DNA from: an uncultured Methanomicrobiales archaeon
GTDB taxonomy: Archaea > Halobacteriota > Methanomicrobia > Methanomicrobiales > Methanospirillaceae
Direction of reading: 5' to 3'
Length of the DNA: 64,000 nucleotides
NCBI GenBank assembly: GCA_963697895.1
Contig: OY969100.1
Location: 384,001-448,000 of the forward strand
This document shows positions 27,934 through 43,162 of this stretch, one piece after another. Made by a program: the position numbers and the translations under genes. The first letter of the stretch is position 1; each line of letters begins with the position of its first letter. The notes beneath the pieces were generated by a model. The model did no database searches. It was not told the origin of the DNA and saw only the letters and a list, made by a program, of their open reading frames with translations.

Positions 27934-29058
27934 TTACAACACCAAAAAGGTCTGGATCCGTTCTGAAGGAATACCGAATTCCTTCCCCCGTGCAATGGCC
28001 CTCAGGTTGAATACCTCGTATTTTTTGTGTTCAAGATAGGAGAGGATAGGAAGAACGGAGAATGGAAATCGTTTCGAAAGTTTTTCCAGGAGATGCAGTC
28101 TGACTGCCGCTACTGCGATCTCCACCTCGTGAACGGCCCGCTCCCGGGTCTGGAACCGGTCCCAAACCAGTTCAATAGCATCATCCTCATCTATAAGGGG
28201 ATTCTTCTGGAGTTGACGAAGTGCCGCGGTGAGAACAGGCAAAATGTTCGTTTTCTTAAACATCGCGGCAAACTGGTCACGATCATCAAGGGTATACAGT
28301 TTCTCAAAGAAGCCGATAGGGATATCCCCGTCCGGTATAACATTCTCCTCAATCATACCCCGCTCACACCGGCTCTCGCCGCATCTAAGCCGGAGGAGAT
28401 TACGCAGATTCGTAATATCGATCTCGAATCGCACATACCTCGCAAGAATTTCACCCCCTTTTACGCCCACGACTGCATCATTTATCAGATTATAATAAAA
28501 TTCTTTGTACAATGCATTTTCCAGACGGGCAAATGCACCCTTCTCCTCGCACATATTATAATATGTCCGGAGTACCGGATATAAGGGCCAGGCTCGGAGC
28601 GCCTCCACTATCTCCTCGCATGAATTCCGTGACAACAGATGTTCAAGGAACGCCGGGTCGAGCACCCCGGCCGGGATAAGGACCCGTGATACAGTGTCGT
28701 CAGGGATGTGATGTTGTTTACCCCGAAGAATCGTCATAACATTGGCTATATCCCATTTATTTACATATTCTGCGATGAGGTGGTGCAGATACCCAGGGGT
28801 GATGCGCATGATATTCCGGAAGGATTCCGCTAGATTTCTGGATAATGCCGCTTCTATAAGGTCTATTCCTGAAGCGCTTCCTGACAGACTCATTACCTCT
28901 TCACGGTAGGTTCCTTCTCCGATGAAACGGGCGATCTCCGGGAGGCTCATGTTGAGGATACGGCCGTACTCATCACGGGGATAGAGAAGAGTCGCCCGTG
29001 TCTTCAGCCGTGTACAGACGTAAATATAGGAACTGGGAAGGGTGATGGTCCGGATCAT
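27934..29058 (-). CDS. atpC: A/V-type ATP synthase subunit C, second (orphan) copy
   Basis: YIYVCTR, LNMSLPEI, WDIANVMTILRGK, KKYEVFNLRAIARGK; colinear with atpC at 57867. Confidence 0.88.
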   Translation of the reverse strand: MIRTITLPSSYIYVCTRLKTRATLLYPRDEYGRILNMSLPEIARFIGEGTYREEVMSLSGSASGIDLIEAALSRNLAESFRNIMRITPGYLHHLIAEYVNKWDIANVMTILRGKQHHIPDDTVSRVLIPAGVLDPAFLEHLLSRNSCEEIVEALRAWPLYPVLRTYYNMCEEKGAFARLENALYKEFYYNLINDAVVGVKGGEILARYVRFEIDITNLRNLLRLRCGESRCERGMIEENVIPDGDIPIGFFEKLYTLDDRDQFAAMFKKTNILPVLTAALRQLQKNPLIDEDDAIELVWDRFQTRERAVHEVEIAVAAVRLHLLEKLSKRFPFSVLPILSYLEHKKYEVFNLRAIARGKEFGIPSERIQTFLVL

Positions 29059-29226
29059 GGATAGGAATACACTAATGAATGCCTTGATGAACGTTTAGGG
29101 TTTGCGTAATTTTTTTCCCGGATTATATCCGTGTCATTCGATGAAAGTTGAGGGTATTTTACATAAATCCAGTTTTCTGCCGAGGTCACGAAAAACAGAG
29201 AGAACTTATGATTTTAGCGACGTAAT

Positions 29227-29538
29227 TCATTCACCAACATACTCTTCCAGCCGCTTGAGTAGATCCTCTTCGATCTTCAGGATGACTTCACGCGTCCCCC
29301 GGAATGCAAGGAGCTCGCGTTCATCACCGGCCATATTTGCAAAGTACAACCGTTCTTTTCGGGAGACCAGTTCAACATCATAGTTCTTCATGATATCGGA
29401 GATCATCTTTCGCGGCACACCCGGGGGGATCAGCAGATCATAGAGTTCTTTCTTTGTTTCCGGTGATTCAGACGGAACTGGTATCTCTTTACCGGTTATC
29501 CGGCCGCGATCTTCTGGCGACTTGGGTTCTTCTGCCAT
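29227..29538 (-). CDS. Conserved methanogen hypothetical protein
   Basis: MAEEPK...LYDLLIPPGVP...ELLAFRG; directly downstream of marker 14. Confidence 0.7.
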   Translation of the reverse strand: MAEEPKSPEDRGRITGKEIPVPSESPETKKELYDLLIPPGVPRKMISDIMKNYDVELVSRKERLYFANMAGDERELLAFRGTREVILKIEEDLLKRLEEYVGE

Positions 29539-29561
29539 GGTTATCACGCGATTGAAAATAA

Positions 29562-31061
29562 TTACTTCCCTGCTTTGATACGCCTGTTCATAATACAGGG
29601 ACCACCCCATACGCCACCTATCGGGTTTCTGGGTTTCCCAAGGGAATTCATGCATCTACCCATCAGAGCTGCGCCCCGGGCGAGACCATCATCGACAAAT
29701 ACGAGGTGATTGTTTGGATCTTCGAATAGGTGCCGCTCGGTAAGACCTTCAAGGATGTATTCGGGTTTTCTTCCGGAGATTGCTGCTCTTCCGGTGAACC
29801 CGATCGATGAGTGGGGAAAGACAAGACGCTCAACAACCGCGATGTCCACGAGCCTCAGTGCCATCCGTGCACATACACGGTCTATCACATCGTTGAGAAG
29901 ACCGAGGCCGTATTTCTGATAGATCTCTGTACCGATCTCCCTCAGATCTGTGAGCCCGCTGCCATCCACTCCAGCGTCACAGCCGATGAGTGCTACTCCT
30001 GACTCCTTCGCAACATCAGCGTAAACCGGAACCCGACCGAATCTCCGGCGCTCGGGAGGAACAATCCGGATATCGATGAACTGGTGACAGGCATCAACAT
30101 ACCCGGCGACGACCGAGCTCTTCTGTTTCAGAGAAAATTCACCGACGATACTTCGGTCACCGAAGATATCGAGGGCCGTCCCCGTCCGACCATCCACCAG
30201 ACCAGTCCCCCTCACGATCGCATCAGGGATCGCCCCGGCAAGACCACAAAAATTACCGATTGTCTTAGCGAACGGATTCGGATCGTCCGGTTCTACGTCA
30301 CTCGTGATACGGCCGTCAAGGGTGGTTCCGAAATCTATGGAAATGCAGGGGTTCCGGAAATCGATCGGGGTCCATTTTGCACCTTCTTTGATTCCGGCCA
30401 TCGCGAGTTCTCCCTCCATCTCGTTTGCCACCATCTCGACCCCTGTGCTGCCGACGGGTGGTACCACCCCTGCAACCGCGCCGATGAAGACGACCTTATC
30501 GGCAAAGCTGTAGGGCTGGAGTTTTTGCGGCTGATTTGCCTTTGACATGGGAGGGGTCATCTTCCGTGGCGGCACACCTGCAAGGAGGCAGCCGTTCGCG
30601 AGTGCCAGGACAAACATCCCCACCTGATCGGGGGAATCCATTGCGGCAACAACGCCTGTGCTTCTCACAACGAAATCCAGGTCCTTCTCGATATCGAGAT
30701 GGGCTTCCCGGTGGCATTCTATGAGGGTATCACGGACCAGTTCGGTGACGGACTGCTTGGTCAGTTTGGTTCCGTCCAGGGTTTCTCCGAAGATCTCCTC
30801 CCCCGGTTTTGGCTTCCGGACATCCCGGCTCATCTTCACGGTCTTGTTGATAACGTAACACATTCCGGTCTCCAGATTTACCCCGGTGAGGATGCATTTC
30901 GTTGTCGTGTTCCCCATCTCGACGGAAGCAACGATAAAATACGGCTTGATCTTGTATTCCGGGATGACCAACCCGGGACCGTGTGCAATGGACGGCGGAG
31001 GCGGACTTTCGACAATATGAGGAGTTGGTTTAAAAAAGCGGTCGAAAAACCGTGCACACAT
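29562..31061 (-). CDS. Methanogenesis marker protein 14 (ASKHA-like)
   Basis: VASVEMGNTTTKCIL, DFVVRSTGV, ANEMEGEL, IDFGTTL, GFTGRA, FVDDGLARGAA. Confidence 0.88.
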   Translation of the reverse strand: MCARFFDRFFKPTPHIVESPPPPSIAHGPGLVIPEYKIKPYFIVASVEMGNTTTKCILTGVNLETGMCYVINKTVKMSRDVRKPKPGEEIFGETLDGTKLTKQSVTELVRDTLIECHREAHLDIEKDLDFVVRSTGVVAAMDSPDQVGMFVLALANGCLLAGVPPRKMTPPMSKANQPQKLQPYSFADKVVFIGAVAGVVPPVGSTGVEMVANEMEGELAMAGIKEGAKWTPIDFRNPCISIDFGTTLDGRITSDVEPDDPNPFAKTIGNFCGLAGAIPDAIVRGTGLVDGRTGTALDIFGDRSIVGEFSLKQKSSVVAGYVDACHQFIDIRIVPPERRRFGRVPVYADVAKESGVALIGCDAGVDGSGLTDLREIGTEIYQKYGLGLLNDVIDRVCARMALRLVDIAVVERLVFPHSSIGFTGRAAISGRKPEYILEGLTERHLFEDPNNHLVFVDDGLARGAALMGRCMNSLGKPRNPIGGVWGGPCIMNRRIKAGK

Positions 31062-31306
31062 ATGATCGAATTTCTGGCTGTATCACCATATATCTTTCGA
31101 TTTCGGCGAATTTTCTGCTGGGATGGATTGGACACCATATCCTGGGTCCATTTCCATGATCTTCCAATGAGTAGTGAACATACCCTTGAAGAGACGATCA
31201 TGGCGGGATAACTATATCGAATGACCTGAAAGACACCTGAACCGGAAAATTCCTGCATGAATGATCGCATTTTTTAACCTTACAACCAGAAATCATTTTC
31301 AATCAC

Positions 31307-31558
31307 ATGGGAAATCGTTCACGGAGCAAGCTGGTCATCACCCTGCTGATCCTCATACTGACCATGGCCGGGCTGGCCCTGTTCGGACTCATGCTGATGA
31401 TATCGGTCGATCCAACGGCAAGCGGTCCCGGATATGATATCGTCCGGTGGATGGAACAGGTAATCCCCCCGTATGTTTTTGGTCTGAAAGAGTGGATCGA
31501 ATATATCTTCCAGCAATTGCAGCAGTTCATTCAGGGCATTGTTCCCGGAAACGGTTAA
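31307..31558 (+). CDS. Small membrane protein, hypothetical
   Basis: Basic N-terminus, one hydrophobic helix, amphipathic C-terminal helix. Confidence 0.6.
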   Translation: MGNRSRSKLVITLLILILTMAGLALFGLMLMISVDPTASGPGYDIVRWMEQVIPPYVFGLKEWIEYIFQQLQQFIQGIVPGNG

Positions 31559-31635
31559 AGAAGACGGGGGATGATAACGATTACCGGGGATTCATTTCAG
31601 TTAATACCATTAGATAACGTGATAATTCTGCATAA

Positions 31636-32403
31636 TTACGACGACTTTCTGTGGACAGACGACATATCTACAAGCCGGCGGGCAAGGTGCATGATAGCCG
31701 TGCGGGCAGGATTATCTGCCGGGATATCTGTGATAGGGGTCCCGGCAAGGTCGGCCCCTAATATTCCGCGATCTTCAGGGATCAGTCCGATGACGGGGAT
31801 CTGACCGGTAATATCAGCCGATTCTCCCCGATAGCGGTTGAATACGAGAAAGATTTTCCGATCTTCGATTCCGAGAGCGCGTGCGATCTCCCGGATACGG
31901 TCTGCCGTCCGGATCCCGCGGACACCGGGGTCGCTTACAATTAGCAGGATATCGGGTTTCCCGATCGTACCCCTGCTGATATGTTCCATTCCGGCCTCGG
32001 AATCGATCACGATGAAGCGGTACTCGCGTTCCAGTGAATGCATAGCGACCTGGAGAAGGTCGTTCGCAAAACAATAACACCCCATTCCCTCCGGACGACC
32101 CATGGCGATCAGGTCGAAACCTGACGATTCAACCAGCACCTGCCTGAACCGAAACCGGATATAATCGGTCCGTGACATTCCCGACGGGATCTGCTTTGTG
32201 AACGCCTCTTCACGCATGCTCCCGAGCGTCTCCCGTACCTCGACTCCGAGTGCTTCATGAAGATTTGCATTGGGGTCGGCATCCACCGCGAGAATTGGTG
32301 TTTCATCGAGATCGACGAATGATCTGATGAGAAGTGCGCTGATCGTCGTCTTACCGGTTCCACCCTTTCCCGAGACGGCGATAATGAACGGTATCTCCAT
32401 CAC
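31636..32403 (-). CDS. cooC: CooC/AcsF-type nickel-insertion ATPase
   Basis: SGKGGTGKTT, DADPN, GRPEGMGCYC (CxC), DSEAGMEH. Confidence 0.9.
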   Translation of the reverse strand: MMEIPFIIAVSGKGGTGKTTISALLIRSFVDLDETPILAVDADPNANLHEALGVEVRETLGSMREEAFTKQIPSGMSRTDYIRFRFRQVLVESSGFDLIAMGRPEGMGCYCFANDLLQVAMHSLEREYRFIVIDSEAGMEHISRGTIGKPDILLIVSDPGVRGIRTADRIREIARALGIEDRKIFLVFNRYRGESADITGQIPVIGLIPEDRGILGADLAGTPITDIPADNPARTAIMHLARRLVDMSSVHRKSS

Positions 32404-33431
32404 TGTAGCATCCTGATTCGTCGGGAGAGATCTGATGCCGCCTGCATGATCCTTTCCGCGCCGTTCTCATCTGCAAACCGGATCCCGCAGCTTGGCGTGA
32501 TCAGCGACCTGCTGTCCAGGATCCGGGGTGGGATATATTCGGTCACGCTTCTCCGGAGATCGATATACCGTTGATAAAGTGATTCCATATTCTCACCGGA
32601 GAATACCCTCTCGTCCGCAGGAACTATTCCCCACGCGATGATCCCGCCTCGTTCCAGATATGCCGCGAGCGCTTCCCGGTAGAGAAGAAACTCCCGGCTA
32701 TGCTCATATGCATCGAAAGATATGACCGAAGGGTTGAGTGACATCACAAACTCCCAGTCGGTATTGGAGCAGCAATGTATTCCGAGGCCGCCATCGACCA
32801 TTCCGGAGATCTCATCCCAGCCTGTGCGCACCATATCGATATCAATCGTGATGACCGATGAACCAAGCGCAGCAAAATATGGTTCATTCAACACGATAAG
32901 GGTCTCTGCAACCCCTGTCTTCATCCTCATCTGCGTCTCACACCAGAGTGCCCGCAGCGCGATCATCTTGGGGAGGACATCCGCAAATTGTGGATCATAT
33001 GCAATGGGTTTTCGATCCCCGTCCACCACCTGCATACCAAATGTAACCGGCCCGGTAATCTGGCACTTGAGGCCATAAGCATCAGGAAACCGGTATCGCA
33101 TCATCGCATGAAATCCCGATCCATAATCGACAGAGATCCCGTACGGTTCGCAGTTTTTCTCGAGAAAATCGATGTAAATCTGCTCCATTTCCGCGGAAAG
33201 ATCGGACGAACGATCTACGAGGAGTCGGTCCTCACGGATAATACGCCCCGGAAGCTTCTCGGAATCATTAAATACAATACTTTCGAGGACGCTCCGGTTG
33301 GGAAGGGTCGGAACATACGGAAAGTCCGGATAGATACGCAGGACAGATTGGCAGGCTTCCTCGGGGTCGAGGTGAGGAACGGCGCCGATCCCTGTTGCCC
33401 GACTTTCCGGGGGGGGGAGCATTCGTGACAT
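32400..33431 (-). CDS. Folate-independent core methionine synthase (methylcobamide:homocysteine methyltransferase, MesB-like)
   Basis: TGIGAVPH, KCQITGPVT, GIHCC, FDAY, IAWGIVP, LITPSCG (Zn ligands HxC...C); single MetE C-terminal-like barrel, 343 aa. Confidence 0.78.
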   Translation of the reverse strand: MSRMLPPPESRATGIGAVPHLDPEEACQSVLRIYPDFPYVPTLPNRSVLESIVFNDSEKLPGRIIREDRLLVDRSSDLSAEMEQIYIDFLEKNCEPYGISVDYGSGFHAMMRYRFPDAYGLKCQITGPVTFGMQVVDGDRKPIAYDPQFADVLPKMIALRALWCETQMRMKTGVAETLIVLNEPYFAALGSSVITIDIDMVRTGWDEISGMVDGGLGIHCCSNTDWEFVMSLNPSVISFDAYEHSREFLLYREALAAYLERGGIIAWGIVPADERVFSGENMESLYQRYIDLRRSVTEYIPPRILDSRSLITPSCGIRFADENGAERIMQAASDLSRRIRMLQ

Positions 33432-33434
33432 CTA

Positions 33435-35336
33435 TCATTCCCTCCGGATCCTGCATTCATCGAGCATCTTCTCAACCATCGGGAAGAGAGAAAGATCAGT
33501 ATGGGGGAGGAATGCACTGCCGGTATATTCATCCATGAATGCAGGTTCGGCATTCAGCTCGATATATGCGATACCCCTGGCGATGTCGTCCAGAACTTTA
33601 CGCTTTTTCCGGTTGATCAATGCGATATTGGCCCCTTCGATTGCGCCGTTCCCGATCGTATGGATACGATCAATCGGTACTTCAGGGATCAGCCCGATGA
33701 TGATCGCATTTTCCTTATTGATATAGTTCCCGAACGCCCCCGAGAAATAGATCGTGGCGATATCCTGACGGGTGATGCCTGCCTGCTTCATCAGAGTTAT
33801 ACAAGCTGCGAGAATGGACGCTTTACTCATGATCAGGTTCTTCACGTCATTTTCCGTGATAACGATGTCCTTCCCGATCCCGGTCTCCTCTTTCCATGCA
33901 ACGACGAATTCCGGGAAATGCGCTCCCTGCCGCACCCGCTCGTGTTCGATTGTCGTATTGATCCTTCCATTCCTGTCTATGATACAGCTGCGCAACAATT
34001 CGGCCAGGAGGTCTATCAATCCCGAACCGCATATCCCCCGTGGAGGAATATGGTTGATCGTCCGGTAGACGGGGGTCAGGGTGAGGAGATCCAGGGTGAT
34101 CTGTTCGATCGCCCCCGGATTCGCACGCATCCCAAAGAGGACCTCGCCTCCTTCCAGAGCCGGGCCCGCGGCTCCGGCACAGGAGAACATCCATTCCTTG
34201 TTCCCCAGCACCACCTCGAAATTCGTCCCGATATCGATGAGAAGGGCAATTTCATCACGTTCTGCCATGCCGCATGCAAGAATATCGGCAATGATATCCC
34301 CCCCGATAAAATCGCTCACCGCAGGAAAGATAAAAACCCCGGCGTCATCGGCGACGGAGATGCCCACCCGGGAGGCAGCGGTGGTGAGGTAACGCCTGAC
34401 CACCGGAACATATGGCTCTTCGATCATGTACGCCGGATCTATTCCCATGAGGATATGGGTCATGATGGTATTGCCGGCAATAACGACTTCGTAGATATCA
34501 TCGGTATCAATTGCACCGGCATTCGCGGCAGCCCGGATGGCAGTATTGACGCTCTCCGCAGCAAGTGCCTGGAGTTTATCGAGCCCCTCTCTCCGTGCAT
34601 AGTTGACCCGGGAAAGGATATCTTCGCCGGTACCGATCTGCCGGTTGTAGTTGGATGCAACCCCGACGACCCGTCCGTCGACCAGGCTCCGTATGTAGGC
34701 GACGATGGTGGTCGTGCCGAGGTCGACCGCAACTCCGAACAGATTTGTGGAAGTATCCCCTTTTTCCAGTTCGATCAGGCGGTATCCTCCTGGCACGAAT
34801 GCGACTGTTGCGGTCACGCGCCAGGCGCTCTCCCGCAGCACACGCGGTATCCGCTGGAGCACTTCGAGCGGGACATAGATCTTTTCGGCAACGGGTCCAC
34901 CTTTCTTCTCGATCCCCCAGAGGAGCCTTGTAAGATCAGGGGATGGATCATCCAGGGAGGGAGGGGTTAAAGCCAGGGCGAATTTCCAGACCGACGGATT
35001 CAGTGTTGTTTCGATGCCAAGCCCTTCGATCAGGATCTTCTGTTCCTGGATAAGCGAGGTCTCCGGCACCAGCACCTGCACGTCATCCTCGATCACCGTC
35101 TTGCACGCCAGGCATGCTCCCTTATCCAGTTCTTCGTCGGTAAAAAATTTACCGAATGCCCCACGGTCGAACGAGGCGATGCCGGTCTTTAGGTATACGA
35201 TACATTTTCCGCATTTTCCCTGCCCGCCACAGACCACATTCATGTGAAGACCGGCAGCCTGGGCAGCCTCGAGTATGGTCTTCCCTCTGTCGACCGTGAC
35301 TTTCCGGAAATTCGGGAGGAATGTGACAACGGGCAT
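33435..35336 (-). CDS. acsV: Reductive activator of CoFeSP (RACo/AcsV; 2Fe-2S plus ASKHA domains)
   Basis: CGGQGKCGKC...CLAC, DLGTTT, DIGTNFE, AAGPALEG, GICGSGLID, GAFG. Confidence 0.9.
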   Translation of the reverse strand: MPVVTFLPNFRKVTVDRGKTILEAAQAAGLHMNVVCGGQGKCGKCIVYLKTGIASFDRGAFGKFFTDEELDKGACLACKTVIEDDVQVLVPETSLIQEQKILIEGLGIETTLNPSVWKFALALTPPSLDDPSPDLTRLLWGIEKKGGPVAEKIYVPLEVLQRIPRVLRESAWRVTATVAFVPGGYRLIELEKGDTSTNLFGVAVDLGTTTIVAYIRSLVDGRVVGVASNYNRQIGTGEDILSRVNYARREGLDKLQALAAESVNTAIRAAANAGAIDTDDIYEVVIAGNTIMTHILMGIDPAYMIEEPYVPVVRRYLTTAASRVGISVADDAGVFIFPAVSDFIGGDIIADILACGMAERDEIALLIDIGTNFEVVLGNKEWMFSCAGAAGPALEGGEVLFGMRANPGAIEQITLDLLTLTPVYRTINHIPPRGICGSGLIDLLAELLRSCIIDRNGRINTTIEHERVRQGAHFPEFVVAWKEETGIGKDIVITENDVKNLIMSKASILAACITLMKQAGITRQDIATIYFSGAFGNYINKENAIIIGLIPEVPIDRIHTIGNGAIEGANIALINRKKRKVLDDIARGIAYIELNAEPAFMDEYTGSAFLPHTDLSLFPMVEKMLDECRIRRE

Positions 35337-36671
35337 CTACCGTTTCCACTCCTTTTCCAGAAACTCCCCGATCTCTGCTGCATCGCGGGGTCCGACCAGC
35401 ACCTTCCAGCCGGTAACCTCTTCTATCCTTCCGCTGATCGGGGCAGCATAACCTGGGATGATAAGTGTCCGATGCGAGACGAGCGATTCGACCCCGAATT
35501 TCTGGAGAGATTCTTTGACCAGGGTCTCTGAGAGTTTGCCGGCTGCAACTGCAGTCAGTACAGAAAGGCCCTCTGTATCGACGATGAGCATGAAACAGGG
35601 AACACGTGACGATTCGAGATAGCCCTGAAGGGTGAAAAAGGTGAGAGAGAAGTTGACTGTCATGAGAACGGGCGAATCCGGGCCGGGGACGCCCACCCGG
35701 TATATTCCGGGCGTCATCTGGATCGGTTTCTGCGGATCGGTATATACATTCTGCCGGAGTGTCAATGCAGCCTGGGTTGAGGCGGGAGAAAGGTCATCCG
35801 CCACGATCACCGATGCGTACTTGAGTATACCGAGCGCAATCGCCGCATCACGGGTTTGGATCCTGGTCGTGTCGAGGAAGATCGGATACCCGAGATCCGG
35901 GGATTCTCTTGTTATCGCCAGCTGGCGGGTCGCCGTTGCGGATCTGATATATTCCCCGAGTGTCGAGGGGGAACTGTCGAGGACCAGGTGCATTATCCCT
36001 TCATCCGAACATTTTCGCGCAAGTTCGGCGACTTCGCTAAGGCCGTTTCCTTTTATCGCAAGAGGACATCCATATTTTTTCGCAAGCCGACAGCACTCAC
36101 TGTAGGTATCCGGAGTAGCAGCATGAAGCAATGGCCGGTAATTACCGCAGAGCGTCAGGCCCGCTTCGAGCACCGCGGGATCTGTGGCCATTAGGACCTC
36201 AGGAAGGTCTGCATTCCCCTCCACGATCGCGACCGCTTTTCGGAATAATTCTTCAGACCCGCTGTCATTTCTGATCGCAACACCGTTAAACCGGAGATCG
36301 GCTCCGACGCGGACGAATCGCTCGTCACGGACCCGTTCTGTTACCCTTTTAATCTGTTCCGAAGTCCAGTTGTCAGAGATTGCGATAATGATCCCCGGTT
36401 CATGGTAGAAGGTCTTTTCGTGCCTGTACAGGAAAAACTCATTGCCCACCCGAAAGGATCGTTCGCCGACCCCGATCTTGACGAGCTGTACTGGCGGTCG
36501 GGTTGAGGCGCCGAGTATCTTTTTTGCATGTTCATCCAGGTACGGACATTTCTCTACTTCGCCCTTTCCACCGGCAAGTTTCATGGCGAAGGTGAGGCAG
36601 GTCGGTTCACCACATTCCTTGCAGTTTTTCCGGGGGAGGAGCTTATATATATCGAGGGCTTTAAGGACCAT
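35337..36671 (-). CDS. acsC: Corrinoid iron-sulfur protein large subunit (AcsC/CdhE)
   Basis: LPRKNCKECGEPTCLTFA...CP, YRHEKTF, LRQNVYTDPQKP, NFSLT, GLSVLTA, VGPRDA. Confidence 0.93.
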   Translation of the reverse strand: MVLKALDIYKLLPRKNCKECGEPTCLTFAMKLAGGKGEVEKCPYLDEHAKKILGASTRPPVQLVKIGVGERSFRVGNEFFLYRHEKTFYHEPGIIIAISDNWTSEQIKRVTERVRDERFVRVGADLRFNGVAIRNDSGSEELFRKAVAIVEGNADLPEVLMATDPAVLEAGLTLCGNYRPLLHAATPDTYSECCRLAKKYGCPLAIKGNGLSEVAELARKCSDEGIMHLVLDSSPSTLGEYIRSATATRQLAITRESPDLGYPIFLDTTRIQTRDAAIALGILKYASVIVADDLSPASTQAALTLRQNVYTDPQKPIQMTPGIYRVGVPGPDSPVLMTVNFSLTFFTLQGYLESSRVPCFMLIVDTEGLSVLTAVAAGKLSETLVKESLQKFGVESLVSHRTLIIPGYAAPISGRIEEVTGWKVLVGPRDAAEIGEFLEKEWKR

Positions 36672-36677
36672 CGCAGA

Positions 36678-37631
36678 TCACCCTTCTCCTGCGATTTCTC
36701 CGCGGAGTGTCCTGAACGCCTCTTTCAATAGCGGGACGGTTCGCGGATGACGGACACACACGATTGCGGCCCCCGCGACGGCTGCTGAAAAGCAGCAGTA
36801 AAATTCCCACATCACAGCCATATCGTCCTGAAGATCAGGAGAAGCATCCCTGACCTCCTTAATATTCAGCGAGTCGATCGGGGAACTGATCATCGGCATC
36901 GCCAGATCCTGATCTCCCTTCAGGGCGGCAAACCGGATCCGCTCCATCACTGAATAGGAATATTCGAATCCATACCCCAGTGCGCCGGTATAGGGGTCAA
37001 TAAGAATATGATCGGCCGGGACTCCGATCTCGCGGAGCAGGATATTCAGTTGTTTCGCGAGGTTGATATCGATCGGGGACTGTGCAATAACCGAATGATC
37101 ATATGCCAGCGCAGATGCTGCAATGCTGCGGTATCGTTCGGCTTCCGCGGTTCCGAGAAGAAGCCGTTCTCCTTCTCCTGCCTCCCCACACCGTTGGAAT
37201 ACCTCGCTGTCGATTGACGGGTCATTACTTCCCTCGATGATCAGGGGAAGTCCGGTTCCCGAAAGAGTATCCTCTACAGCCCTCGTTACCGAGGGGAAAT
37301 CGGAAAAATCCCTCTGTCGGGTGCCGGTCAGGTATAGCCTGACCAGATCTGCTCCATATTGTTGTTCCGCCGATTTTGACCATCCTTTTAGATCATGTAC
37401 CAGATCACCGACCGCCCCGGTGGCGATGGGTGACCAGAGCGTGGGATCGTCACAGATCTCAAAAGCAACGAGCGGTTGATCCCCGGGTGTCACTTCCCCG
37501 GAGAAGGGAAGGTCATTGTCCCCTCCGATATGGTACGTGACCGTTCTTGTGCCCCCATCCGACGGTGATGCTCCCAGTACGACTTCCCCGATCTTTCCGG
37601 TCCAGTCGAATTTTGCTGTCAGCGTTGTCAT
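36678..37631 (-). CDS. acsD: Corrinoid iron-sulfur protein small subunit (AcsD/CdhD)
   Basis: GKIGEVVLG, SPIDINLAKQLN, IDPYTGALGYGFEYSYSVMERIR, RHP. Confidence 0.93.
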   Translation of the reverse strand: MTTLTAKFDWTGKIGEVVLGASPSDGGTRTVTYHIGGDNDLPFSGEVTPGDQPLVAFEICDDPTLWSPIATGAVGDLVHDLKGWSKSAEQQYGADLVRLYLTGTRQRDFSDFPSVTRAVEDTLSGTGLPLIIEGSNDPSIDSEVFQRCGEAGEGERLLLGTAEAERYRSIAASALAYDHSVIAQSPIDINLAKQLNILLREIGVPADHILIDPYTGALGYGFEYSYSVMERIRFAALKGDQDLAMPMISSPIDSLNIKEVRDASPDLQDDMAVMWEFYCCFSAAVAGAAIVCVRHPRTVPLLKEAFRTLRGEIAGEG

Positions 37632-37648
37632 ATCCCTCCCACCGCCGA

Positions 37649-39691
37649 TCAGATAAGGGGACGCAGTTTCAGGGCGGGGTGTTCGACCTTCACCAGGAAT
37701 GCGGCGAGTTCTTCTACCGTCGTGGCCTGGGTCTCGTCGGCGATCTGGGAAAAAAGCCCCGGGAGACCACGTTCTGCCAGCTTCTTCCGGAGTGACACCT
37801 CGAGTTCCTCTTTCAGCGCAGCCGGCATCCAGACGAGCCGTTCTATGCCACCTTCGGCCTGGAGAAACCGATCACTCAGGATGAAGTTCTTTGATATTCC
37901 TGCGAAACCGGGGGTCTGTGCTCCTCCTCCGATCGTGCCTGCCAGAGTGGAGAATGACATGCCTGACGGTGTCTGGCCTTTGAACTCCCGGTTCACTACC
38001 ATGATACCATTCACTTCAGGCAGTATCAGGGCGATGCACTCGAAGCACCCGCAACATGTCATGGGATATTCCATTACGCTATACAGGGAACAGCGATCGA
38101 CCTCCCCATGGGATGCCTTCTTCACGAACCTGTTCACCCCTTCGAACTCCCCGCGAACCGCATCGATGACCGCTCCCTTCTCAATAGGCTGGTTTGCCCC
38201 CGCAGGGGAGATCTCATAGGCAATCTTTCCATCGAGCCAGCTGATCGCCCCACAAAGAGCCGTTCGTTCGGGGGTGATCACGCAGACATGATTGGGCGCA
38301 AAGGTCTGGCAGAGGGTGCAGGAATAATAGATGTTCACATCCGCATCTCTCATCCCCTGGATACGCCGGTCTCTCTCTGCATAGATCTCCTCGGCCGCCT
38401 TTTTTTCCTGCACCACCTGAACCGGGTCGGTGATCAGGGTCACCTGAACTGCCTCGATCAGGTCGGGAAAGTCGATCCGGAACTTGGCAGCGAGGAGGTC
38501 CCCGAGGTGTCGTATCCGGACCCCGTTCGCGACCGCTTCCTTGGATAGGCGGACCCAGATAAGGTCACGCTGGGCGACGTGCCATGATCCTTCCCCGTAG
38601 TTGATGAAATTATGGATCCGGCGTTCGAGGACCGGTTCGTAATCTTTCCGCATATTTTTTCCGGCAACATCGACCAGAATCCCAAGCGGCACTGCGGACC
38701 CCTCCTTGATCTCTTCGATCTCGGGTCCGACAACCTCTACCCGTCCGTCCTGCACTTCGGTCGATTGTTTCATCCGAAGGATTTCAAAAGCCGGAGAACG
38801 ACCTCCACCAAATTCAACATACATCTCCTCTTTCCTGATACTCTTCCCTTCAAACGCAGGAGAGCAGCCCATCGGAATGGGGATTGCGGTGACTTTGACC
38901 CGGATATCTTTTAATTCCATTCCCCGGCTGACCGCTTCATCGTGTGTGGTTGGGATCCAGTCTTTTCCATCGTAATCACCCAGGGAAAGAATCGGCATGC
39001 CGAGAACACGGAGCGAATCGACGAAAGCGAGGGATTCTTCATCCAGCCCCGGAAAAACAATTGCAAAGGCCTTCGCACGCTGTTCTGAAGCATACTTCAG
39101 GAGTCGCTCACTGTCGCCCGGAGGTACGCCCCCGAACATCATGGCGACCCTGACGATGATATCCACAAAATGAATGCCTTTAATGGGCGTAGATCCCAGC
39201 GGTATGAGCCGGTAATCGATTCCGACCTTCACACCTGCTTCACGGAGTACCGGTATCACTCCTCCGGTGAGGAAGGTGAGCATATATTTTTCCTGGAGTT
39301 CCCTGCAGATCCCTGCGGCGACGCCGGCCGATGGGGGAGTACCGATGACAAGGGCGAGCCCGAGGATACTCCCATCCACCAGTGAATACCCGAGTTTCCG
39401 AAGAATTGCATCGCCGATAAAACCCGTGTATGGTTCAGGTTCGCGACCCTGCTGCGTCTCACGGTACACCTCGAGAATCTCTGCCCCAACGAGGGTATTC
39501 TCTCCGGATAACCCGTACGCTTCACGGGCACTCACCGCATCATGCACATCTCTCCCTGTTAGCGCATATATGATGGGAAGATGGTATGCGGTCTCATCGT
39601 AGCCGAAAGTCCCGGAAATTTTCCCTATCTCTTCTTTCAGGATTAAATTTCCTTTCCGGACTGCAGTATCTATATTGGTCACACAGTACAC
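37649..39691 (-). CDS. acsB: Acetyl-CoA synthase, bacterial-type (AcsB) with N-terminal domain
   Basis: A-cluster ligands CTLCQTFAPNHVCVITPERTALCG and PMTCCGCFE; N-terminal TAYHLPIIYALTG and DAILRKLGYSLVDG; GTG start. Confidence 0.92.
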   Translation of the reverse strand: MYCVTNIDTAVRKGNLILKEEIGKISGTFGYDETAYHLPIIYALTGRDVHDAVSAREAYGLSGENTLVGAEILEVYRETQQGREPEPYTGFIGDAILRKLGYSLVDGSILGLALVIGTPPSAGVAAGICRELQEKYMLTFLTGGVIPVLREAGVKVGIDYRLIPLGSTPIKGIHFVDIIVRVAMMFGGVPPGDSERLLKYASEQRAKAFAIVFPGLDEESLAFVDSLRVLGMPILSLGDYDGKDWIPTTHDEAVSRGMELKDIRVKVTAIPIPMGCSPAFEGKSIRKEEMYVEFGGGRSPAFEILRMKQSTEVQDGRVEVVGPEIEEIKEGSAVPLGILVDVAGKNMRKDYEPVLERRIHNFINYGEGSWHVAQRDLIWVRLSKEAVANGVRIRHLGDLLAAKFRIDFPDLIEAVQVTLITDPVQVVQEKKAAEEIYAERDRRIQGMRDADVNIYYSCTLCQTFAPNHVCVITPERTALCGAISWLDGKIAYEISPAGANQPIEKGAVIDAVRGEFEGVNRFVKKASHGEVDRCSLYSVMEYPMTCCGCFECIALILPEVNGIMVVNREFKGQTPSGMSFSTLAGTIGGGAQTPGFAGISKNFILSDRFLQAEGGIERLVWMPAALKEELEVSLRKKLAERGLPGLFSQIADETQATTVEELAAFLVKVEHPALKLRPLI

Positions 39692-40016
39692 CCCGCGGAT
39701 CAGATATTCTCTCCCCGTTCACTATATGAGTTTGTATTGGTAACCGGGGCCTGAAGAAAACGGGTCACATGCGGGAATTCTATGGCTTGCCTAATTACTG
39801 GGATGCCCGGGATCCATTCAGAATTACGACTTACGATCAAACCTCACAGAATATCGGGCAACGATCTTTAAAAAATCCGACTACGGCGATCGCCACCCCC
39901 TATCCACCAGTTTCTTTTTTCCCACCCGGCTATCCGAGACGGTTATGGAATCAGGGAAAAAATATCAATTCATCACGTAAGGGTAAAAAAAACTTTGGGC
40001 AGTGACAGCATCCACC

Positions 40017-40388
40017 CTATAAATATCTGTTTTTCCGCAACCAGTCTACCTGCGGTTTTGTGTATCGGTACGAGATGTCGCACTTTTCGTCCTGGAAGCT
40101 CCATGGGATGACAATGAGGGTATCTCCTTCACGGATCCAGACCCGTTTCTTTATTTTGCCCTTTATCCTGCCCATACGGGTAACACCATCAATGCAGCGG
40201 ACACGAATATGATTTGCTCCCATCATCAGTTCGGCGTAAGCGAACATCTCACGGTTCCGTTTTTTAGGCACCCGAACACGGATGGTCTCGATGCCTGTCT
40301 CATTTACCGATTCAACGACAATATCGTCACTGCTGGCTTTTTGCGGATCATATCTAATAACTGATTCAACTCCCTGTTCATATATCAA
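40017..40388 (-). CDS. eif1a: Translation initiation factor aIF-1A
   Basis: MGANHIRVRCIDGVTRMGRIKGKIKKRVWIREGD...PWSFQ..RY; start uncertain. Confidence 0.93.
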   Translation of the reverse strand: MIYEQGVESVIRYDPQKASSDDIVVESVNETGIETIRVRVPKKRNREMFAYAELMMGANHIRVRCIDGVTRMGRIKGKIKKRVWIREGDTLIVIPWSFQDEKCDISYRYTKPQVDWLRKNRYL

Positions 40389-40672
40389 TGGCCTGTGGCG
40401 GCATTAACGTATGCCATCCCCCATTAAGGGAAGCCCGGATTTTTGTTTTTTTTTTGCCATACGGAGATCGGAATAAAACCTGCGAAATATCACGGGATAA
40501 AAAGTCCTCAAACCATATAGAGCAGTGCGATTATCTACGCGCTTTTCCCAGGTCCACCCCCCATTGCCGTTTTCGCTGGACACGCCATTCAATTTTCGGC
40601 ATTTTTAGATCGGGCTGAAGATTGTTTGGGATGGGTTTTTCGCATCTCCCGGCAAGATATCACGTGAAGTTC

Positions 40673-41068
40673 ATGACGGACATGGAGGAATTTTTTTCAC
40701 GGGATGCCTATGCAATGCATTCAGGAATCGAACTGGTTGCGGTCGGTCCCGGGAAGGCACGGGCCAGGATGAAGATCGATGAACGGCATCGGAACAGCCA
40801 CGGAACCGTTCACGGGGGTGCAATCTTCACCCTCGCCGATGCAGCATTTGCACTCGCTTCCAATTCCCACCATGTACCGGCTGCGGCGATCAACGCACAC
40901 ATTACGTATATAAAGGCTGCCCGGGAGGGGGTGCTCAGCGCGGAAGCCAAAGAGTTTGCTTTGAATCCCAAGCTGGCGACGTATATCGTCACGGTCACGG
41001 ATAGTGCCGGGGAGAAGGTAGCTCTCTTCGAGGGAATGGTCTACAGAAAGACACCCCGGAAAGAATAA
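40673..41068 (+). CDS. PaaI-family hotdog-fold thioesterase
   Basis: NSHGTVHGGAIFTLADAAFALASN. Confidence 0.88.
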   Translation: MTDMEEFFSRDAYAMHSGIELVAVGPGKARARMKIDERHRNSHGTVHGGAIFTLADAAFALASNSHHVPAAAINAHITYIKAAREGVLSAEAKEFALNPKLATYIVTVTDSAGEKVALFEGMVYRKTPRKE

Positions 41069-41091
41069 TCGGTAGGATCGAACGACTTTCT

Positions 41092-42090
41092 CTACTTTTT
41101 TCCTTCTCTCTCCTTATCCGGACCCGTAATCTCATTTACCGTGCAGGTGGATGCACAGCGATCGCAGATCTTCTCATCGCATGGCTCTATATGAATGGTT
41201 ATACTGGTCCGTGGAAATTCGAATTTCAAGTCTGATTCAAGGTGATCGGCGATATCATGTGCTTGCTGAACACTCAGGTTCTTCGGTACGACAAGGTGCA
41301 GATCGATGAAGCGGTCTGGTCCTGAACGACGGGTACGAAGGTCATGAAAATTGCTGTAATCGGTACAGTGTTCGCAGATGATCTGCCGAATCCGCTCTTC
41401 CTCCTGGTCCGGAAGTCTCGTATCGATCAGATCGGCAAGCGAACGCCGGGTGAGATCATAAGCTGTTTTGATGATGATCATTGCGACACCGATAGCAAAT
41501 ATCGGATCGAGTATAGTCAGACCGGTGAGGCGAATTGCGATAAGGCCCGCAAAGACACCAAGAGAGGTAAACACATCGGTCCGGAGATGCCACGCATCGC
41601 TCTCCAGGGCAATGGATTCGGACTCTTTTGCGACTTTCATGAGCCGGGATGATACAAATAAGTTCACCAGGACGGATACTAACATGATTGCAATACCGAT
41701 TCCAATAAGGTTCAGGTCGAGTGTTTCCTCACCATAGATTAGTTTGTTGATCGCTTCGTACAGAATCAGGGCTGCCGCTACAAAGATCAGGGTGGCTTCT
41801 GCGAGTCCGGAGATATCCTCGAACTTTCCATGTCCGAATGCATGGATATTATCGGGAGGTTCACTTGACTTTCGCACGGAGAAATAGGCAATAATCGCCG
41901 CCATCAGGTCGATTCCGGAATGGATCGCTTCCGATATGATACTTACTGATCCGATCCCGATACCAACAACCAGTTTCAGAATGACCAGAAATGTGTTGGA
42001 TGCAACCGACAGGCGGGCGGTTTTCTGTTTTTTCTTATTCAGTTCTGATTCGACAGTCCCTGGCTCCCGCGAGGCACTGGTCATGGTCAT
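41092..42090 (-). CDS. Cation diffusion facilitator (FieF-like) metal exporter
   Basis: SEAIHSGID, HAFGHGKFE, DAWHLRTD, LRTRRSG, AHDIAD, IHIEPC; Cys-rich tail. Confidence 0.92.
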   Translation of the reverse strand: MTMTSASREPGTVESELNKKKQKTARLSVASNTFLVILKLVVGIGIGSVSIISEAIHSGIDLMAAIIAYFSVRKSSEPPDNIHAFGHGKFEDISGLAEATLIFVAAALILYEAINKLIYGEETLDLNLIGIGIAIMLVSVLVNLFVSSRLMKVAKESESIALESDAWHLRTDVFTSLGVFAGLIAIRLTGLTILDPIFAIGVAMIIIKTAYDLTRRSLADLIDTRLPDQEEERIRQIICEHCTDYSNFHDLRTRRSGPDRFIDLHLVVPKNLSVQQAHDIADHLESDLKFEFPRTSITIHIEPCDEKICDRCASTCTVNEITGPDKEREGKK

Positions 42091-42374: not shown

Positions 42375-42656
42375 ATGAAGATTGAACATGTCCCGGGATT
42401 GAACAGAGGAAAGATCATCCTTTATGCGCTATCCACCTGCGGATGGTGCGCCAAGACAAAGGCGTTGTTGTCCGAGTTAGGGGTGGATTATTATTTCATC
42501 TATGTGGATCTTCTGCCAGCGGAAGAGATGGACAAAGTAATGGCAGATGTAGAGAAATATAACCCAAAAGGATCCTTTCCCACCCTTGTTATCAATGATT
42601 CGAAATGCATCGTGGGATTCCGCGAGGAAGAGATCAGAGGAGTGCTCGGAGGATGA
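42375..42656 (+). CDS. Glutaredoxin-like protein (methanoredoxin-like)
   Basis: [28 protein letters not shown]. Confidence 0.88.
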
Positions 42657-43162
42657 ATGCGACGGATATAACCCCCGAATCCGTGGAGCGACGATATAAG
42701 GAATTATTTGAAGAGGCAGAGGCCGGTGGATATCACCTCCATCCGGACGTTCCTTTCGTAAAAAACCTCATCCGCGGCTTGATCGTGAACGAACGCCGGT
42801 ACGGATACCAATCCTGCCCGTGCAGACTTGCATCCGGCAACCGGGCGGATGATCTTGATATTATCTGTCCCTGTGATTATCGGGATCCGGATCTGGATGA
42901 ATACGGGGGATGTTATTGTGCCCTTTATGTGGCAAAAGCGGTCATCACCGGGGATCGAACGCTCGGGTCGATACCGGAACGGCGCCCACCCCGGACCAAG
43001 CGTATGGTATCAGGAAAATTGCTGTCAGAACCTTCGTTATCCCCTCTGTCATACCCGATCTGGCGATGCAGGGTTTGCGGATACATATGCGCCCGTGACG
43101 AACCTCCGCTCCAGTGTCCGATCTGTAAGGTCAGTAAAGACCGCTTTGAGCGTTTTATGTAA
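42653..43162 (+). CDS. Ferredoxin:thioredoxin-reductase-like disulfide reductase with C-terminal rubredoxin (FDR-type)
   Basis: CPCR, CPCDY, CYCALY FTR motifs; WRCRVCGY...CPICK rubredoxin; ATGA overlap with the upstream gene. Confidence 0.9.

Follow-up and report, generated by a model that had tools for sequence, protein, structure and literature searches.

A six-gene acetyl-CoA synthase module with a MesB-derived zinc methyltransferase, conserved in Methanomicrobiales and able to occur without carbon monoxide dehydrogenase

The window analysed here is a stretch of 64,000 nucleotides (nt) from an uncultured archaeon of the order Methanomicrobiales (family Methanospirillaceae; assembly GCA_963697895.1, contig OY969100.1, positions 384,001 to 448,000), and its positions 31636-39691 hold six tightly packed open reading frames (ORFs) on the minus strand. 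These encode a long, bacterial-type acetyl-CoA synthase (ACS), both subunits of its corrinoid iron-sulfur protein (CoFeSP), the reductive activator RACo, a zinc methyltransferase of 343 amino acids (aa), here called P0001, and a CooC-like ATPase. We find that the six genes form a discrete operon, which is conserved in the order, and that this module can exist without any carbon monoxide dehydrogenase (CODH), though most carriers have one. In most carriers, including the source genome, P0001 has replaced the two residues that its MesB relatives are predicted to use for homocysteine binding. Taken together, these features tentatively suggest a CODH-independent methyl shuttle that works in the direction of acetyl-CoA cleavage, with an acceptor that may have been changed or broadened in the crown group to which the source genome belongs.

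The operon is intact, with intergenic gaps of 17, 6, 0, 3 and -4 nt in the order AcsB-AcsD-AcsC-RACo-zinc methyltransferase-CooC, in agreement with an earlier note on this DNA that had described six same-strand genes with overlaps or gaps under 20 nt. Protein families were assigned by Pfam and NCBIfam matches, and the features in transcriptional order are as follows.

39692..40016, minus strand: presumed promoter or leader, a 325-nt intergenic region between the eIF-1A gene (identified by Pfam) and acsB
37649..39691, minus strand: AcsB, long bacterial-type acetyl-CoA synthase, 680 aa, with the N-terminal domain and the full A-cluster motif (NF040764, PF03598, PF19436)
36678..37631, minus strand: AcsD, small CoFeSP subunit, 317 aa, short delta form (NF003376, PF03599)
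35337..36671, minus strand: AcsC, large CoFeSP subunit, 444 aa, 4Fe-4S motif at the N terminus and corrinoid domain at the C terminus (NF003195, PF04060, PF03599)
33435..35336, minus strand: RACo-type reductive activator, 633 aa, 2Fe-2S and ASKHA ATPase domains (PF14574, PF17651, PF17650, PF00111 (Fer2))
32400..33431, minus strand: P0001, putative MesB-derived zinc methyltransferase with the MetE fold, 343 aa (predicted fold, motifs, homologues)
31636..32403, minus strand: P-loop ATPase for nickel insertion, CooC/AcsF-like, 255 aa, its gene sharing 4 nt with that of the methyltransferase (PF01656)

The family matches and motifs agree with the naming of both CoFeSP subunits, RACo and CooC in the earlier note. 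AcsB scores 904 bits against NF040764 (cut-off 800), has the features of the long form and carries the complete set of A-cluster cysteines that had been claimed for it (C458-x2-C461-x8-C470-x9-C480 and C547-G-C549); its closest solved relative is the ACS of Carboxydothermus hydrogenoformans (1ru3, 7zkj; 643 bits over residues 16-680). AcsD (345 bits against NF003376, cut-off 280) is of the short form, without the archaeal extension, and together with AcsC (546 bits against NF003195), which has both PF04060 and PF03599, it makes up a complete CoFeSP. RACo shows all four of its Pfam domains (2Fe-2S ferredoxin, linker, middle and ASKHA ATPase) above their cut-offs, while scoring 549 bits on the NCBIfam AcsV "exception" model, under the cut-off of 800 for that model. 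CooC is matched by general P-loop family profiles only, in Pfam and NCBIfam alike, and displays a P-loop of the form GKGGTGKT at residue 12 and a C109-x-C111 motif; we take a deviant Walker A P-loop with a C-x-C metal motif to be the marks of the CooC/AcsF nickel-insertion ATPases. ORF and family scans recovered no CODH (Prismane-family) gene, no cdhB and no AcsE in the operon or its flanks, as had been noted before, and hence the operon lacks the arrangement of a bifunctional CODH/ACS, in which a CODH subunit is encoded with the ACS.

To P0001, the member on which the function of the module turns, no Pfam family matched, and its sole NCBIfam match was a weak one (methionine synthase PRK00957, E 2.9e-4); a sequence search of the PDB gave nothing meaningful (best E 1.1). 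However, an AlphaFold (AF2) model built from 50 family sequences, with a predicted local distance difference test score of 96.7, found as its best fold matches the MetE catalytic barrels 4l6h and 1xdj, the latter homocysteine-bound, with E-values around 1e-8, followed by UroD and an MtaA-like protein. The nearest relatives outside the methanogens are proteins of Dehalococcoidia and Anaerolineae with 35-40% identity. The same range, over about 330 residues, holds for 41 homologues from Chloroflexota, two of them labelled Dehalococcoidaceae, which serve here as a proxy for the MesB of Dehalococcoides mccartyi itself. More distant representatives score 150-226 bits against P0001; for comparison, the text of Price et al. 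2021, which defined MesB, asks for a similarity to D. mccartyi MesB of at least 130 bits, or about 29% identity.

The predicted zinc site is that of MesB. The putative ligands H219, C221, D240 and C315 reproduce the HCDC pattern given for MesB in the text of Price et al. 2021, where an Asp stands in place of Glu665 of MetE. All four are invariant in 120 close homologues, and among 130 distant homologues the first three are invariant and C315 is found in 129. Further, a profile alignment with hhalign placed the zinc ligands of P0001 on the H-x-C, Glu and DCG motifs of the MesA encoded in the same genome. The homocysteine pocket is another matter. In D. mccartyi MesB, Ser15 and Asp177 (Ser433 and Asp599 of MetE) are assigned to the carboxylate and amine of homocysteine by Price et al. 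2021, in the text of that paper, and P0001 has Ala17 and Asn182 in place of this Ser and Asp. Position 17 is Ala in 105, Gly in 14 and Thr in one of the close homologues, as against Ser in 118 of the 130 distant representatives; all 120 close homologues have Asn at position 182, where 123 of the 130 have Asp. In the hhalign alignment Asn182 pairs with the Asp in the IDEP motif of that same MesA, and the Chloroflexota proteins keep the Ser in 39 and the Asp in all 41 loci. Thus, the description of P0001 as a MesB-like zinc methyltransferase stands as regards fold and zinc ligands and does not extend to the homocysteine-binding pair; judged on sequence, we call it MesB-derived and refrain from calling it a methionine synthase.

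The replacement runs through most of the order. Of the 56 other genomes with a match to P0001 we checked 49 (29 best loci and 20 further ones that were fetched), in which the residues at positions 17 and 182 are Ala/Asn in 32, Gly/Asn in six, Ala/Ser in five, Gly/Ser, Ala/Gly and Ala/Asp in one each, and Ser/Asp in three; that is, both residues are replaced in 45 of 49 carriers and both are retained in three. In a midpoint-rooted FastTree phylogeny the methanogen clade is monophyletic (support 1.0), with Ser/Asp forms at its base. Two exceptions lie inside the derived Ala/Asn crown, namely the genomes G076 (Ser/Asp) and G110 (Ala/Asp), whose states may reflect reversion or gene replacement, and conceivably a switch back to homocysteine. 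We observe separately that G076 has a bacterial-like IFLDEPYF motif and that both genomes are among the carriers without a detected CODH. Fixed differences between the crown and the bacterial family number only nine (positions 17, 42, 52, 55, 123, 180, 182, 222 and 258), both pocket positions being among them along with position 222, which adjoins the zinc ligand C221.

To define the distribution of the module we surveyed 151 species-level genomes of Methanomicrobiales. The 343-aa protein occurs in 57 of them and the AcsB N-terminal domain likewise in 57 (one by a weak match of 41 residues), and the two occur together in 55, which we term carriers. In 47 carriers both markers lie on the same contig and strand, 6.2-6.7 kb apart, and in the other eight they are divided across contig ends. 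Carriers are spread over five of the six families and are patchy inside genera (9 of 27 genomes in one genus). In a scan of one genome per species, loci labelled Methanoregula, Methanolinea, Methanosphaerula, Methanoculleus, Methanofollis and Methanospirillum showed the order AcsB-AcsD-AcsC-RACo-Mes-CooC wherever the flank suffices, and with these counts the survey of synteny in the order that the earlier note had proposed came out in favour of a fixed six-gene unit. Clustering of flanking families at 27 loci, which counted ATG-start ORFs wholly inside 6 kb, revealed no widely shared and functionally telling neighbour beyond the six genes; the commonest flank family was a PEGA-domain protein (13 of 27 loci), others being ACT/metallo-beta-lactamase, arginine decarboxylase and HAD proteins. 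A phylum-wide search of 301 genomes recovered P0001 homologues outside the order in a single family only (f10; 15 of 24 genomes), with 32-35% identity and mostly 33-35%.

The source genome is that of a methanogen, as shown by mcrA, and a search of it qualified the label "CODH-less" that the module had been given. While the operon itself lacks CODH, a second set of genes in the order cooC-cooC-cdhA-cdhB-cdhC-cdhD-cdhE-RACo lies 1.2 Mb away, at C1:1.61 Mb of the 2.09-Mb genome, so that the genome does have a complete cdhABCDE operon; its cdhA, with a CdhC of its own, is the sole CODH. Hence there are two CoFeSP sets, one of them adjoining P0001, and the genome encodes the corrinoid protein that a MesB host should possess. 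The two sets are remote from each other: AcsB and CdhC are 44% identical over residues 272-675, AcsD and CdhD 32%, AcsC and CdhE 35%, and the CooC of the module 32% to each of the two cooC products of the cdh operon, and with identities of 32-44% they are therefore not recent duplicates. The same search found a single Meth_synt_2 (MesA-type) gene at C1:1750634-1751485 with standard GSYP, IDEP, HxC and DCG motifs, and, as the only Pterin_bind protein, dihydropteroate synthase, from which it follows that the source genome has no AcsE.

Across the order the module is only loosely tied to CODH. Of the 151 genomes, 35 have CdhA, among them 25 of the 55 carriers, which leaves 30 carriers without it; of these, 23 have an unlinked CooS and seven have neither type of CODH. 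Stand-alone CooS scores above the cut-off in 78 of 151 genomes, almost always unlinked to the module. The seven carriers without detected CdhA or CooS include five that are 96-99% complete, and a Prismane-family search covering five of the seven found no such gene in G035, G076 and G084 (96-98% complete); in G004, which is a single contig, and G110, both 99% complete, the sole Prismane match was a full-length protein of about 530-550 aa, which we read as hybrid-cluster protein (Hcp). CODH-less carriers have no internal source of CO, and therefore only acetyl-CoA cleavage, or the use of CO from outside, is possible in them.

Of the 151 genomes, 146 have the MesA-type gene, and none of the 122 that are of high quality lacks it; therefore the module is never the sole methionine route in the order, and a dedicated role in methionine synthesis would be redundant. 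In the Chloroflexota relatives the gene is beside acsB, acsC or acsD in none of the 41 loci for which flanks were fetched, and in D. mccartyi the core-MetE gene shares an operon with genes of the S-adenosylmethionine (SAM) cycle, according to the part of Deobald et al. 2020 at hand. The methanogen context thus argues for CoFeSP and not for methionine.

These observations can be joined in the following scheme, which we favour over the alternatives while giving it well under even chances. CooC would mature the monomer-type ACS. This synthase would exchange methyl between the acetyl group of acetyl-CoA and the cobalt of the CoFeSP of the module (AcsCD), held as Co(I) by RACo. The MesB-derived zinc enzyme would move the methyl between CH3-CoFeSP and a zinc-activated thiol. 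The usual direction would be cleavage (acetyl-CoA + R-SH -> CO + CoA + R-S-CH3), because in five near-complete carriers there is no CODH from which CO could come. The ancestral acceptor would be homocysteine, as in Dehalococcoides; in the crown Methanomicrobiales the pocket for the amino-acid head group seems to have been remodelled, and homocysteine is probably not the acceptor any more, or not the only one. In the source genome the module would be accessory, beside the canonical archaeal Cdh complex and MesA. Gene content, motifs, conservation, distribution and residue states are observed, and from them we infer the direction, the flow of methyl and the acceptor. A stronger version, which we consider quite improbable, holds that the crown enzyme has ceased to make methionine altogether and instead methylates a thiol that lacks an amino-acid head group, with coenzyme M (CoM) as the most attractive candidate.

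Several points weigh against the favoured scheme. 1) The change of acceptor in the clade is read from residue states, and any alternative thiol is a candidate. 2) Ser17 was assigned by eye from the GS-x-P motif together with the residue numbers in the text of Price et al. 2021, and not by direct alignment with the D. mccartyi protein. 3) The nine fixed sites are known from the alignment alone, spatial closeness aside. 4) An Asn can hydrogen-bond an amine. 5) The residue at position 182 is not constant in the carriers (Asn, Ser, Gly or Asp), which could reflect relaxed constraint and not a new specificity. 6) The basal Ser/Asp lineages occupy the same operon, so that the function may be unchanged. 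7) Some CODH is present in 48 of 55 carriers as against about 54 of 96 non-carriers, a tally confounded by phylogeny, and in one carrier, G065, a same-strand CooS (G065:C6:126803-128638) follows the module some 3 kb downstream, the only CODH seen so near; given both, a CO-consuming, synthetic direction may apply.

Close behind this scheme, and possible though doubtful on its own, comes the strict methionine interpretation, in which ACS cleaves acetyl-CoA, the methyl passes via CoFeSP to homocysteine, and P0001 is a working MesB that offers an acetate-fed alternative to MesA. This is the self-contained acetyl-CoA-to-methionine module of the earlier note, which gains partial support: a discrete, conserved operon that occurs with and without CODH does exist. 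It also draws on the MesB-family homology of P0001, the retained zinc ligands, the persistence of Ser/Asp in basal methanogen lineages with the same operon, and an Asn that may still bind the amine. The D. mccartyi core-MetE is likewise a protein of 343 aa and uses methylcobalamin (Deobald et al. 2020, in the part at hand), and CoFeSP was predicted as the methyl donor, and methanogen operons were noted, in the text of Price et al. 2021. Against it stand the presence of MesA in every high-quality genome of the order, the lack of acs linkage in Chloroflexota with the SAM-cycle context in D. mccartyi, and above all the replacement of both Ser17 and Asp182 in the source genome and in 45 of 49 carriers. 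As MetE Glu484 is already unconserved in MesB (Price et al. 2021, text), the loss of Asp182 leaves no acidic residue for the amine of homocysteine.

Third in order, and rather unlikely, is operation in the synthetic direction, with the zinc enzyme moving a methyl from a thioether (methanethiol, dimethyl sulfide, methylmercaptopropionate or methyl-CoM) onto Co(I)-CoFeSP, and ACS joining it with CoA and with CO from CdhA, CooS or outside for assimilatory formation of acetyl-CoA. Corrinoid-dependent thiol methyltransferases are reversible in vitro, but moving a methyl from a thioether to Co(I) costs energy. CODH in 48 of 55 carriers, the CooS near the module in G065 and the loss of the amino-acid head-group residues from the pocket all suit such a direction, as does the need of Methanospirillum hungatei for acetate on standard media, stated in the consulted part of its genome paper, if those media lack a required methyl-sulfur compound. 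However, matches to CooS are about equally frequent in carriers (31 of 55) and non-carriers (56 of 96), and no CODH was detected in the five carriers that are 96-99% complete.

The possibility that the module is a second ACS/CoFeSP set serving the CdhA-CdhB CODH via CH3-tetrahydromethanopterin (CH3-H4MPT), in CO2 fixation or acetate cleavage and with a side role for the zinc enzyme, is very improbable: the source genome does have a CdhA, and AcsB keeps the N-terminal domain that in bacterial enzymes contacts CODH, but the cdh operon is already supplied with a CdhC, CdhD, CdhE, RACo and two CooC, the two sets being only 32-44% identical, CdhA is missing from 30 of 55 carriers, the source genome has no AcsE (its pterin-binding protein being dihydropteroate synthase), and AcsD is short, without the archaeal extension.

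The idea of acetate-derived methyl groups reaching methionine through such genes is already in print in outline (Price et al. 2021; Deobald et al. 2020, as far as the consulted parts go). What is new is the quantified independence of the module from CODH and from the need for methionine, together with the polarity of the pocket change and its co-variation; the CODH distribution and residue change were not found in the literature searched, which for Price et al. 2021 comprised the text apart from figures and supplements. There are practical consequences. Genome surveys routinely score acsB/cdhC and CoFeSP genes as autotrophy or acetoclasty, and in Methanomicrobiales such genes are often part of a module operating without CODH, in hosts whose named relatives need acetate. 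The warning of the earlier note that the genes do not indicate autotrophy agrees with the case of M. hungatei, whose genome paper, in the part consulted, lists "Cdh" genes Mhun_0686-0690 of undefined role in an organism that needs acetate. Mhun_0686-0690 may be the same module, and a Methanospirillum-labelled contig does carry RACo-Mes-CooC. If acetyl-CoA is cleaved, CO would be released by these methanogens, which abound in wetlands and digesters, and part of their methyl pool would bear the isotope signature of acetate. The residue loss in the crown, set against the ancestral basal forms, offers a clean natural pair for biochemistry and could reveal a new acceptor for the methyl of CoFeSP. 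Were CoM the acceptor, the reaction would be acetyl-CoA + HS-CoM -> CH3-S-CoM + CO + CoA, and the methyl of acetate would reach methane through methyl-CoM, without H4MPT or Mtr, in supposedly strict hydrogenotrophs; run in reverse, it would lead from methyl-CoM to acetyl-CoA.

Around the operon, eIF-1A is the upstream neighbour and methanogenesis marker 14 the downstream one. Directly downstream, at 27934-31061 on the minus strand, are the gene for this marker protein (DUF2114, TIGR03285, 611 bits) and one for an A/V-type ATPase subunit C. Beyond the eIF-1A gene, at 40622-42090, lie a 4HBT-family thioesterase (148 aa, plus strand) and a cation-diffusion-facilitator zinc/cation efflux protein (332 aa, minus strand), both of which fell outside the flank clustering, and an ORF of 185 aa at 42605-43162 (plus strand) joins a PF02943 ferredoxin-thioredoxin-reductase catalytic-chain domain to a rubredoxin-like PF21349. 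A scan with Rfam across 31000-40400, which takes in the presumed leader, gave no family at gathering score, and no riboswitch or leader element was found there. Outside the window the source genome encodes the mercury-methylation pair hgcA (415 aa, NF040863, 445 bits) and hgcB (NF040864, 115 bits) at C1:1013697-1015261 on the minus strand, and HgcA is found in 49 of the 151 genomes of the order. We considered a link between the module and mercury methylation and rejected it as shared ancestry, with only one of 17 HgcA-positive genomes outside families f1 and f2 carrying the module. In three f10 genomes (G214:C1:1030710-1031700, G276:C1:2688067-2689051 and G207:C8:10735-11277) the P0001 homologue has an in-frame TGA near residue 150, which may be a frameshift or a recoding site; in G214 and G276 the remainder of the gene is present as a second overlapping piece.

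Among known systems the closest counterpart is that of D. mccartyi, which reportedly has an incomplete Wood-Ljungdahl pathway. For Dehalococcoides a flow from acetyl-CoA through AcsB and CoFeSP to core-MetE was proposed by Deobald et al. 2020, in the part at hand, as an explanation for its missing CODH. In both, ACS and CoFeSP lack a CODH partner, the zinc enzyme is a MetE-fold protein of 343 aa with the HCDC pattern (P0001 having 35-40% identity to Dehalococcoidia homologues), and the proposed flow is from acetyl-CoA through CH3-CoFeSP to a thiol with release of CO. They differ in that 1) the methanogen parts all lie in one six-gene operon, whereas none of the 41 Chloroflexota loci is acs-linked; 2) the methanogen host also has MesA, and the source genome a full Cdh complex as well; 3) P0001 has Ala and Asn for the Ser and Asp assigned to homocysteine binding; and 4) the module AcsB is just 42-47% identical to the AcsB of five Dehalococcoidia and allied genomes, a figure that bears on any Chloroflexota origin of the module as a whole. 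The mesB-acsC-acsD operons of methanogens in the text of Price et al. 2021, from which that paper inferred a direct link between MesB and CoFeSP, are the same arrangement as the present operon; the long AcsB, RACo and CooC as fixed members, the CODH distribution, the universality of MesA in the order and the Ser/Asp replacement go unmentioned in that text.

The monomeric ACS of C. hydrogenoformans (1ru3, 7zkj), which is active without bound CODH, shares all A-cluster cysteines with the module AcsB, although the latter is about 50 residues shorter within the first 100 and belongs to an archaeal host. The archaeal CdhABCDE complex resembles the module in its A-cluster and corrinoid chemistry, its paralogous subunits and its association with RACo and CooC, but differs in having the CdhA/B CODH, a short CdhC without the N-terminal domain and a long CdhD, and in lacking a zinc methyltransferase. 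The MtaA/MtbA methyltransferases of the UroD family likewise methylate a zinc-activated thiol from a corrinoid protein and belong to the same barrel superfamily (4ay8 matches the model with E 5.4e-5). However, P0001 is nearer to MetE (E 1e-8) and has the MetE/MesB motifs, and the likeness to MtaA/MtbA is one of functional analogy only.

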